A model generated the notes under the pieces. That model ran no database searches. It had not been told where the DNA came from and saw nothing but the letters and a program-made list of their open reading frames with translations. Made by a program: the position numbers and the translations under genes. Below, piece after piece: positions 4,499 through 24,861 of a stretch of DNA of 29,073 bases (position 1 is its first letter; every line of letters begins with the position of its first letter). Origin of the DNA: a virus (taxonomy: Duplodnaviria > Heunggongvirae > Uroviricota > Caudoviricetes); IMG/VR virus record IMGVR_UViG_2778261396_000002. One strand, 5' to 3'.

Positions 4499-5713
4499 AT
4501 GAAGATCGTAAAGGCTGAAGTTTTTGTTACCTGTCCGGGGCGTAATTTCGTCACGTTAAAAATCACCACTGAGGACGGTATTACGGGCCTTGGGGATGCC
4601 ACCCTCAATGGACGTGAGCTTTCCGTGGCCTCTTATTTGCAGGATCACCTTTGTCCGCAGCTTATTGGTCGCGATGCGCACCGTATCGAAGATATCTGGC
4701 AGTTTTTCTATAAAGGTGCTTACTGGCGTCGCGGTCCGGTTACGATGTCGGCCATTTCAGCGGTTGATATGGCGCTGTGGGATATTAAAGCCAAAGCTGC
4801 CAACATGCCGCTTTACCAGTTACTCGGCGGCGCGTCTCGTGAAGGGGTGATGGTTTATTGCCATACCACCGGTCACAGTATTGATGAAGCTCTGGATGAT
4901 TATGCCCGTCATCAGGAGCTGGGATTCAAAGCCATCCGCGTGCAGTGCGGAATCCCTGGTATGAAAACCACCTACGGCATGTCGAAAGGTAAAGGTCTGG
5001 CTTATGAACCCGCAACCAAAGGACAGTGGCCGGAAGAGCAGCTGTGGTCGACGGAGAAATACCTCGATTTCATGCCGAAATTGTTTGACGCGGTACGTAA
5101 CAAGTTTGGTTTTAATGAACATTTGCTGCATGACATGCACCATCGCTTAACGCCTATTGAAGCGGCGCGCTTTGGTAAAAGCATTGAAGATTATCGCATG
5201 TTCTGGATGGAAGACCCGACGCCTGCGGAAAACCAGGAATGCTTCCGTCTCATTCGCCAACATACCGTCACACCCATCGCAGTGGGTGAAGTCTTCAACA
5301 GCATCTGGGACTGCAAACAACTGATTGAAGAGCAACTCATCGATTATATCCGCACCACGCTGACCCATGCAGGCGGAATTACCGGTATGCGCCGGATTGC
5401 CGATTTTGCTTCGCTGTATCAGGTACGTACTGGCTCACACGGTCCTTCCGATTTGTCACCAGTCTGCATGGCTGCGGCGCTGCACTTTGATCTGTGGGTC
5501 CCCAATTTCGGTGTCCAGGAATACATGGGTTATTCCGAACAAATGCTCGAAGTCTTCCCGCACAACTGGACTTTCGATAACGGCTATATGCATCCGGGAG
5601 ACAAACCGGGTCTTGGTATCGAATTCGATGAAAAGCTGGCGGCGAAATATCCCTATGAACCTGCTTATCTACCAGTCGCACGTCTGGAAGATGGCACGCT
5701 GTGGAACTGGTAA
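4499..5713 (+). CDS. rspA: Starvation-sensing protein RspA, enolase-superfamily mannonate dehydratase-like (404 aa)
   Basis: ORF 4466..5713; internal ATG 4499 with AAGGAA SD gives [40 protein letters not shown]…. Confidence 0.9.
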
Positions 5714-5724
5714 GGAGTAAGATA

Positions 5725-6744
5725 ATGAAAAGCATATTAATTGAAAAACCGAATCAACTGGCGATTGTCGAACGTGAAATACCCACCCCGTCAGCGGGTG
5801 AAGTACGAGTAAAAGTGAAACTTGCCGGAATTTGTGGTTCAGATAGCCATATTTATCGTGGGCATAATCCTTTTGCGAAATATCCGCGCGTCATTGGTCA
5901 TGAATTCTTTGGCGTCATTGATGCAGTGGGTGACGGCGTGGAAAGCGCCAGAGTCGGTGAACGTGTTGCTGTCGATCCGGTGGTCAGCTGTGGGCATTGC
6001 TATCCGTGCTCTATAGGTAAACCGAACGTTTGTACGACACTTGCTGTATTAGGTGTGCACGCTGACGGTGGTTTCAGTGAATATGCCGTGGTTCCGGCAA
6101 AAAATGCGTGGAAAATTCCTGAAGCAGTGGCCGATCAATATGCGGTGATGATCGAACCTTTTACCATTGCGGCTAACGTTACCGGTCATGGTCAACCGAC
6201 TGAAAATGATACCGTTCTGGTTTATGGTGCCGGTCCAATCGGCCTGACGATCGTTCAGGTATTAAAAGGCGTCTATAACGTTAAAAATGTGATTGTTGCC
6301 GATCGCATTGATGAACGACTGGAAAAAGCGAAAGAGAGCGGGGCTGACTGGGCGATTAATAACAGCCAGACACCGCTTGGCGAGATTTTCACTGAAAAAG
6401 GCATCAAGCCGACATTAATTATCGATGCGGCTTGTCATCCTTCTATCCTGAAAGAGGCCGTAACGCTGGCTTCTCCAGCGGCACGTATTGTATTGATGGG
6501 CTTCTCCAGTGAACCGTCTGAAGTGATTCAGCAAGGAATTACCGGAAAAGAACTCTCTATTTTCTCTTCACGCTTAAATGCAAATAAATTCCCGGTCGTT
6601 ATCGACTGGTTAAGTAAAGGGTTAATTAAACCAGAAAAATTAATTACCCATACGTTTGATTTCCAGCATGTTGCTGATGCCATTAGTTTATTTGAACAGG
6701 ATCAAAAACATTGCTGCAAAGTCTTACTCACTTTTTCTGAATAA
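5725..6744 (+). CDS. rspB: Zn-dependent alcohol dehydrogenase-family protein RspB (339 aa)
   Basis: ORF 5701..6744; ATG 5725 after TAAGGAG gives MKSILIEKPNQLAIVEREIP…; GHEFFGV and GAGPIGL Rossmann motifs. Confidence 0.9.
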   Translation: MKSILIEKPNQLAIVEREIPTPSAGEVRVKVKLAGICGSDSHIYRGHNPFAKYPRVIGHEFFGVIDAVGDGVESARVGERVAVDPVVSCGHCYPCSIGKPNVCTTLAVLGVHADGGFSEYAVVPAKNAWKIPEAVADQYAVMIEPFTIAANVTGHGQPTENDTVLVYGAGPIGLTIVQVLKGVYNVKNVIVADRIDERLEKAKESGADWAINNSQTPLGEIFTEKGIKPTLIIDAACHPSILKEAVTLASPAARIVLMGFSSEPSEVIQQGITGKELSIFSSRLNANKFPVVIDWLSKGLIKPEKLITHTFDFQHVADAISLFEQDQKHCCKVLLTFSE

Positions 6745-23489: not shown

Positions 23490-23535
23490 TTTTTCAACGA
23501 TGGGCTTTGTATACCCGACGTTAAGAAAAAGTAGA

Positions 23536-23560
23536 AAACCCGCTGATGAGCGGGTTTTGT
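23536..23560 (+). terminator. Rho-independent terminator (tR'-like)
   Basis: AAACCCGCT-GATG-AGCGGGTTTTGTGCTTT hairpin plus T-run. Confidence 0.7.
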
Positions 23561-23706
23561 GCTTTAAATGGGGCAATGGTAATGTTGAATCTCATCCCGG
23601 GACTCATGTCTGTTAACTTATTATTTAGCTGGTGACTTGGTTATTTGCCTGATGTTTAAAATGTTTTCTTCCAGTACAATGTCCCTAAACACAATGAGTC
23701 TGCTTA

Positions 23707-23796
23707 TTATATTATTAGCAGAGCTATTACGGCCAAAGTACAGCATAAGCTTTTAAAGCCAATCAACCAGTCATCAAGACAGACGGGGTTATTCAT
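23707..23796 (-). CDS. Small hydrophobic peptide ORF (29 aa) directly downstream of cspF
   Basis: Minus-strand GGAGAG SD then ATG: [29 protein letters not shown]; manual translation, below ORF-track cutoff. Confidence 0.3.
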
Positions 23797-23850
23797 AAAA
23801 ACTCTCCATGTGTGATCCGATGGGGCCTGAAATTAAAGCTTTAATATAGC

Positions 23851-24063
23851 TCATGAAAGGTAAACATTGGCAGCTGAAGGGCCACGCAGACCATTTATCC
23901 GGCAAAATTCCACGCGTAATCCGGTGGTAATTTCTTCTGCATCGCGGAGATTGAGCGCTGAAACATGAAGCTGGACATCGATACGACCATCGGATGGGGT
24001 GATAAGACCCTTGCCGCTTTTGCCGTCAAAGGTTTTGACAATTCCTGTCATTTTACGGGACAA
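23851..24063 (-). CDS. cspF: Cold-shock-domain protein CspF-like (70 aa)
   Basis: ORF translation [70 protein letters not shown]. Confidence 0.88.
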
Positions 24064-24363
24064 AAAAATTCCTTAATACTGATAACTTGGCGCACTATAC
24101 ACACGTTCCTGAAGAAAGCTATAGTTTTTTGATGGGGTTGAAGATGGCTGGATGTCTAAAATAAACATTGCTTCATATGTTCAACTATGCGTTAATGATT
24201 GCGTCGGTTTGAAGAACAGACGATATACGAAGTAGTTTACTAAAGCAGTTCTCATTTCAGGTGTTATTCACTTATTCCTTCTTTGAGTCTCTCCAATTAA
24301 GTACGAAGTCGTTTCTGTTATGCAAACCATTTATGCCGAAAGGCTCAAGTTAAGGAATGTAGA

Positions 24364-24579
24364 ATGTCAAATAAAATGACTGGTTTAGTAAAATGGTTTA
24401 ACGCTGATAAAGGTTTCGGCTTTATTTCTCCTGTTGATGGTAGTAAAGATGTGTTTGTGCATTTTTCTGCGATTCAGAATGATAATTATCGAACCTTATT
24501 TGAAGGTCAAAAGGTTACCTTCTCTATAGAGAGTGGTCCTAAAGGTCCTGCAGCAGCAAATGTCATCATTACTGATTAA
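24364..24579 (+). CDS. cspB: Cold-shock protein CspB (71 aa)
   Basis: ORF translation [71 protein letters not shown]. Confidence 0.93.
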
Positions 24580-24861
24580 AATTCATCGCTCGTCTGTATA
24601 CGATAACGAAGAAGGCTGATGCCTGAGTAGAGATACGGACAGAGTAGTGAATATTGGATCTCTTTAATAAAAAGTAAGGAGGTCCAATACATGAAACAAT
24701 GGCTAGCATATTTGGCAAAATCTTAATCAGGAAAAGTATGCTAACCATTGTGGTGAAGTGCAGGTTTGCTGCATGAATAGTTTTACAGCAGAAGCTAACT
24801 GCTGGCATGGCAAAACAAAGTGCGTAAGTGGATGACTCCCACAAAAAGCACCACAATCTCA

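Follow-up and report, generated by a model that had tools for sequence, protein, structure and literature searches.

YnfS, a conserved 29-residue small protein encoded directly behind cspF in Qin-type lambdoid prophages

AcrZ, MgrB, MgtS and YohP are small inner-membrane regulatory proteins of Escherichia coli, and Ldr, Ibs, TisB and ShoB are type I toxins. The 29-residue protein YnfS, the subject of the present analysis, shares with AcrZ, MgrB, MgtS and YohP, as well as with C-tail-anchored proteins, a length below 50 aa, a single hydrophobic helix-like segment and the lack of an enzymatic domain. A further point of comparison is provided by YnfQ/YmcF and YnfR, which are encoded, like YnfS, by small ORFs right behind csp genes (directly downstream of cspI and cspG) and emerged from the same screens. 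No sequence similarity links these proteins to YnfS, and YnfQ is a CxxC...CxxC zinc-ribbon-like protein, whereas YnfS is a hydrophobic-tailed peptide. YnfR is cold-shock induced, as is its neighbour (PMC6001520).

YnfS is already a known and experimentally confirmed small-protein gene product of Qin, the cryptic lambdoid prophage of E. coli K-12. Chromosomally SPA-tagged YnfS, with the same coordinates and sequence as discussed here, was among 36 proteins detected by immunoblot (VanOrsdel et al. 2018, PMC6001520), and was also positive in tetracycline-inhibited ribosome profiling (PMC6001520). The tag was placed at the C-terminus, where it would mask the tail. Retapamulin and Onc112 profiling subsequently gave 'strong start peaks' at ynfS, although the level of the tagged protein was low (Weaver 2019, bioRxiv 10.1101/511675). 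Both the protein and the initiation peaks were seen in ordinary LB cultures (PMC6001520; 10.1101/511675). A genuine translated small protein is thus documented by several published methods, and the retapamulin start-site mapping that had been proposed as a check on the ORF turns out to be available and positive. Beyond these reports, ynfS is counted among the uncharacterised Qin genes, and the sole remark on its expression found in the literature mentioning YnfS is that its RNA drops upon fluoride treatment.

The window, i.e., the whole stretch of DNA analysed here, comprises 29,073 nucleotides of a Caudoviricetes virus (IMG/VR record IMGVR_UViG_2778261396_000002). The ORF and its surroundings are organised as follows:

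23851 to 24063, minus strand: cspF (b1558), which precedes ynfS in the presumed two-gene operon (NCBIfam NF012007 CspF, 160 bits; annotation)
23797 to 23850, minus strand: 54-nt spacer between cspF and ynfS, with no terminator-like hairpin (sequence and terminator scan)
23802 to 23807, minus strand: Shine-Dalgarno sequence GGAGAG, read from the sequence and followed by TTTTT and the ynfS ATG (N5)
23707 to 23796, minus strand: ynfS coding sequence, 29 codons plus a TAA stop (ORF list; translation equal to b4750 / YNFS_ECOLI)
23525 to 23558, minus strand: G+C-rich hairpin of ten pairs with a T-tract, the first terminator-like site downstream of ynfS (terminator scan)

The start codon occupies 23796-23794 and the TAA stop 23709-23707, with a second TAA right behind it. 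A sequence-only reading of this DNA had described a 29-codon minus-strand ORF opened by GGAGAG-N5-ATG, 55 nt past the cspF stop and ending in a hydrophobic tail. This layout is as claimed, the A of the ATG being the 55th base past the cspF TGA (23853-23851), so that the spacer itself measures 54 nt; the tail is equally borne out, as the final 14 residues are apolar and include neither charged nor strongly polar residues.

It is practically certain that the ORF is ynfS. The window matches the K-12 Qin prophage with 100% identity, as checked over 501 bases around the ORF, for which MG1655 and many further E. coli strains are identical, and the translation of NC_000913.3 1642122-1642211, annotated as ynfS (b4750, 'protein YnfS') between cspF and the Q-like antiterminator gene ydfT, is identical to the 29 residues encoded in the window, with equal position and strand relative to cspF and ydfT. 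There is accordingly no difference between the K-12 protein and the product of the window ORF. The peptide scores 80.9 bits (cut-off 27) against the 29-position Pfam family PF23697 'YnfS', matching residues 1-29 of 29, and the cluster to which it belongs bears the UniProt name YNFS_ECOLI; for Citrobacter forms, the same model gives 37.2 and 32.3 bits. A family-library search found no YnfS model in NCBIfam or PHROGs. The alternative raised earlier, that the ORF might simply be an unannotated small protein, therefore falls away: it is ynfS/b4750 in NC_000913.3, is labelled a hypothetical protein by the RefSeq PGAP pipeline, and has its own family in Pfam.

As a sequence-only pattern, a Shine-Dalgarno sequence followed by a short ORF is not above chance in the window: GGAG-N5-9-ATG opening an ORF of 20-50 aa occurs 4 times, against 4.06 +/- 2.0 in mononucleotide shuffles, and ynfS is the only one of the four instances with a hydrophobic tail. 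What raises the ynfS ORF above this background is the conservation of its frame across genera, together with the published translation data. A scan of species-representative genomes for CspF relatives yielded 30 loci, and orthologues of YnfS were found in four Citrobacter species, with a peptide identity to K-12 of 52-59% and a nucleotide identity of 55-68%. All four keep the ATG, GGAGAG at N5-N6 and exactly 29 codons, and start 55-65 nt past the csp stop. The proposed frame is the only one open in all six orthologue sequences, every other frame being interrupted by stops, and it is also the frame with the highest peptide identity. Nei-Gojobori dN/dS ratios are 0.12-0.32, with synonymous sites saturated. 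Eleven positions are invariant (M1, L7, D9, W10, L11, G13, K15, S16, C18, T20 and L26). Conservation is concentrated in a polar/interface core and less so in the 14-residue tail, which varies in sequence yet is apolar in every orthologue. Since a first scan of viral contigs returned identical E. coli copies only, it was used for linkage rather than for family breadth, and a degenerate motif scan was added; all 27 of its matches on viral contigs have an intact 29-codon ORF, a Shine-Dalgarno sequence and a cspF-type gene just upstream. The natural variants listed are, without exception, 29-aa missense forms.

These data bear on two readings in which the peptide itself would be irrelevant. In the first, ynfS is translated and its product is functionless, translation serving to protect the cspF 3' region (e.g., from Rho or RNases) or representing noise. 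The roughly four ORFs of this kind expected by chance, the low level of tagged protein despite strong initiation peaks, and the lack of a known phenotype would all fit. However, the dN/dS values, the 11 invariant residues, the exact 29-codon length across genera with stops in all other frames, and the missense-only variation make this reading very unlikely, since purifying selection on the peptide implies that what counts is the product, beyond its being translated. In the second, function resides in an RNA (an sRNA derived from the cspF 3'-UTR, or a structured element), with the ORF present by coincidence. Here, ynfS would sit towards the 3' end of the cspF transcript and ahead of a terminator hairpin, a position typical of 3'-UTR sRNA sources. 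Yet no Rfam family matches the ynfS region, the fold of the cspF-3'/ynfS RNA is not significantly more stable than that of shuffled sequences (z = -1.68), for which reason no RNA element is claimed, and the comparison of Escherichia with Citrobacter reveals a conserved reading frame between unconserved sequences, as neither the remainder of the spacer nor the DNA downstream of ynfS is alignable between the two genera. An RNA function is thus extremely improbable. We conclude with high confidence that YnfS is a real, selected protein.

Several annotation irregularities were encountered within the family. Some Citrobacter annotations extend the N-terminus to 48 aa (P0017, P0019 and P0020) or 39 aa (P0023 and P0025); these are probably mis-called starts, because the conserved Shine-Dalgarno sequence directly precedes the internal ATG. 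The same clusters hold two unrelated long proteins, P0013 (291 aa) and P0021 (601 aa), which look like clustering artefacts.

The sequence-only reading had also suggested that a peptide of this form could be membrane-active in the manner of a type I toxin. Under this reading, YnfS would damage membranes and would normally be checked by an antisense RNA. YnfS is indeed a short, prophage-encoded peptide with a hydrophobic segment, like HokD and other type I toxins, and hokD, a genuine type I toxin gene, lies only ∼3 kb away in the same prophage. In addition, sigma-70-like hexamers on the plus strand (23686-23715) might, in theory, drive transcription of an RNA antisense to ynfS (and cspF). These hexamers are weak (9/12), however, in a stretch whose scan returned 6 promoter-like sites against 3.6 expected, and they have no counterpart in the Citrobacter loci. 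Rfam reports no family over the ynfS region at E <= 1, the sole strong match nearby being the cspA thermoregulator on cspB. An antisense RNA antitoxin was accordingly not found in silico, either as an Rfam match or as a conserved antisense promoter, a search that an undescribed RNA could escape. The mode of expression is also different: type I toxins are made from stand-alone, translationally silenced mRNAs, whereas ynfS is a second cistron with a consensus-like Shine-Dalgarno sequence, translated from the chromosome in unstressed LB cultures with strong initiation peaks.

The hydrophobic segments of YnfS and HokD also differ. HokD has a 20-aa apolar run near the N-terminus followed by a polar domain, whereas the uninterrupted apolar run of YnfS spans 14 aa and is located at the extreme C-terminus. 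The best 19-residue window of YnfS includes Lys15, and its summed Hessa score ranges from -1.0 (K-12) to +3.8 (Citrobacter), compared with -4.7 for HokD, i.e., a far weaker hydrophobicity, in a rough estimate that applied no position weighting. Furthermore, it is mainly the polar/interface core, and not the tail, that is conserved. A toxin of this type is therefore very unlikely. No overexpression toxicity test of YnfS was found in the full-text literature mentioning 'YnfS'. Separately, a 39-aa antisense ORF is present on the plus strand (23637-23756); it is not conserved in the Citrobacter loci.

Co-transcription with cspF, which had also been proposed, is very probable. The terminator scan finds the 54-nt spacer free of terminator-like structures and places the first hairpin (23535-23558, within the site 23525-23558) ∼150 nt beyond the end of ynfS; ynfS is, moreover, invariably linked to cspF. 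All of this argues for a shared transcript. We infer that the hairpin is the operon terminator. The minimum-free-energy fold contains this hairpin, which is turned towards the 3' side of Q (ydfT), a gene of the opposite strand. Phage Tritos and E. ruysiae have kept it intact despite their deletion of ynfS. Situated between the 3' end of Q and ynfS, it could terminate transcription from both sides.

The pair points against its neighbours. Whereas Q, cspB and the lysis genes occupy the plus strand, cspF-ynfS lies on the opposite strand between Q and the lysis genes; this arrangement suggests expression from a separate promoter in the lysogen, with Q-dependent late transcription reading the pair in antisense. 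Other elements of the region include a cspA thermoregulator (RF01766, 154 bits) at 24203-24595 on the plus strand, a known element that covers the 5' UTR and coding region of cspB; Rfam gives no such match for cspF. In the interval between ydfU and rem, a K-12 strain record (NZ_CP032667.1; positions 5489-5767 of locus L001) carries a 92-aa hypothetical protein annotated by PGAP (WP_012304870.1) that is unannotated in NC_000913.3.

Genomic neighborhood analysis reveals a strict association with one type of csp gene. The distance from cspF to ynfS is 54 nt in 80 of the 80 IMG/VR loci with a K-12-type peptide, and this spacing holds even where 1.9-2.5 kb are inserted between ynfS and Q. Among the loci from species-representative genomes, a YnfS-like frame follows 9 of 10 cspF-type genes (those whose Csp is nearer CspF than CspH) and none of the cspH-type genes. 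Conservation behind cspF and cspH homologs had been suggested as a check; it holds for the former and fails for the latter. The region downstream of K-12 cspH has no ynfS counterpart because homology stops at the csp stop codon. Loss affects both genes in phage Tritos and E. ruysiae, where cspF carries a 1-nt frameshift and a deletion of 258 bp has taken away ynfS along with the final codons of cspF. In Citrobacter sedlakii, the cspF-type gene directly adjoins icd, and the DNA that would otherwise follow it is absent.

As for distribution, ynfS occurs in 1412 of the 5426 complete genomes of E. coli and in the cultured temperate phages PhiR42_1, HannyBb, PhiR63_1 and 2H10. A tblastn search against plasmids gave weak matches only, in E. 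coli and Klebsiella records, plus one chance match. One of the plasmid-collection entries, a 9.5-kb Klebsiella oxytoca record (NZ_CP069920.1), has a YnfS-like 29-aa ORF annotated as a hypothetical protein at 5344-5430; this 'plasmid' is possibly a phage fragment. In Citrobacter braakii ATCC 51113 (∼1390-2870 of locus L012), ynfU-cspB-cspF-ynfS is kept as a four-gene unit between two seemingly non-phage ORFs, of 232 aa and 545 aa, and the block may thus move or persist independently of the prophage.

Taken together, ynfS is very likely the second cistron of a cspF-ynfS transcript, encoding a selected, possibly membrane-associated small protein that is co-expressed with CspF. It is translated from its own strong Shine-Dalgarno sequence, and the transcript would end at the hairpin ∼150 nt downstream. 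Pointing against late transcription, the pair would behave as a lysogen-expressed 'moron' of Qin-type lambdoid prophages. An invariant core, L7-x-D9-W10-L11-x-G13-x-K15-S16-x-C18-x-T20, with a tail behind it that varies yet is apolar throughout, would suit a C-terminally anchored or membrane-interface protein. Judged from the sequence, the chances of membrane association appear evenly balanced: a helix crossing the membrane would normally need a longer apolar run, and, in contrast to the small membrane proteins and C-tail-anchored proteins that YnfS resembles, its apolar segment falls below the length of a canonical transmembrane helix, with Citrobacter orthologues scoring marginal or negative. 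By analogy with other bacterial small membrane proteins, YnfS, made together with CspF, might act by binding a larger partner, a suggestion we regard as tentative. Reading the invariant residues as a helical face or a lipobox was abandoned, since this would over-interpret three clades.

Another reading involves the product of the neighbouring gene. CspF and CspH form an aromatic-poor, divergent Csp clade whose function is listed as unknown. Describing cspF as a 'cold-shock gene', as in the sequence-only reading, is loose, given this divergent clade and given that cspF mRNA goes up in long-term stationary phase, where deletion of cspF has no phenotype. A rival to the general explanation holds that YnfS is a dedicated partner or modulator of CspF, not necessarily membrane-bound, and that the two-gene unit acts on host RNA metabolism. 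The strict linkage to cspF-type and not cspH-type genes, the fixed 54-nt spacing and the joint loss are in line with this idea, although a simple operon of unrelated morons would show equal linkage. CspF, moreover, has no known activity; when it was overexpressed, the RNAs tested, which other Csps do influence, were unaffected.

A faint analogy is offered by cspI and ynfQ, which in K-12 are distinct genes with 10 nt between them. In C. sedlakii NBRC 105722, both parts form a single ORF of 130 aa (1814-2206 of locus L011, minus strand): residues 1-62 are a CspI-like cold-shock domain (71% identity), and residues 69-130, in the same frame, are a YnfQ-like CxxC...CxxC zinc-ribbon (69% identity). 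Only one genome shows this fusion, which may have arisen by deletion or reflect a faulty assembly. On balance, the partner/modulator reading is unlikely, though less so than a toxin. Slightly more doubtful still, and likewise resting on analogy, is its specific form, in which cspF-ynfS would be a two-component prophage module with YnfS as the dedicated partner of CspF, e.g., a membrane tether or gate.

The sequence-only reading recovered, from the DNA letters alone, a small protein that had needed tagging and specialised ribosome profiling to establish. If the two-component module were true, it would explain why ynfS accompanies cspF-type genes and never the chromosomal cspH, and would parallel CspI-YnfQ; the C. 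sedlakii fusion, if real, hints that csp-adjacent small proteins work with their Csp. Beyond what was known, the present analysis adds selection on the peptide across Escherichia and Citrobacter, the linkage to cspF-type and not cspH-type genes, their joint loss, and the arguments against a toxin, which together provide a rational starting point for the study of the YnfS/CspF pair.
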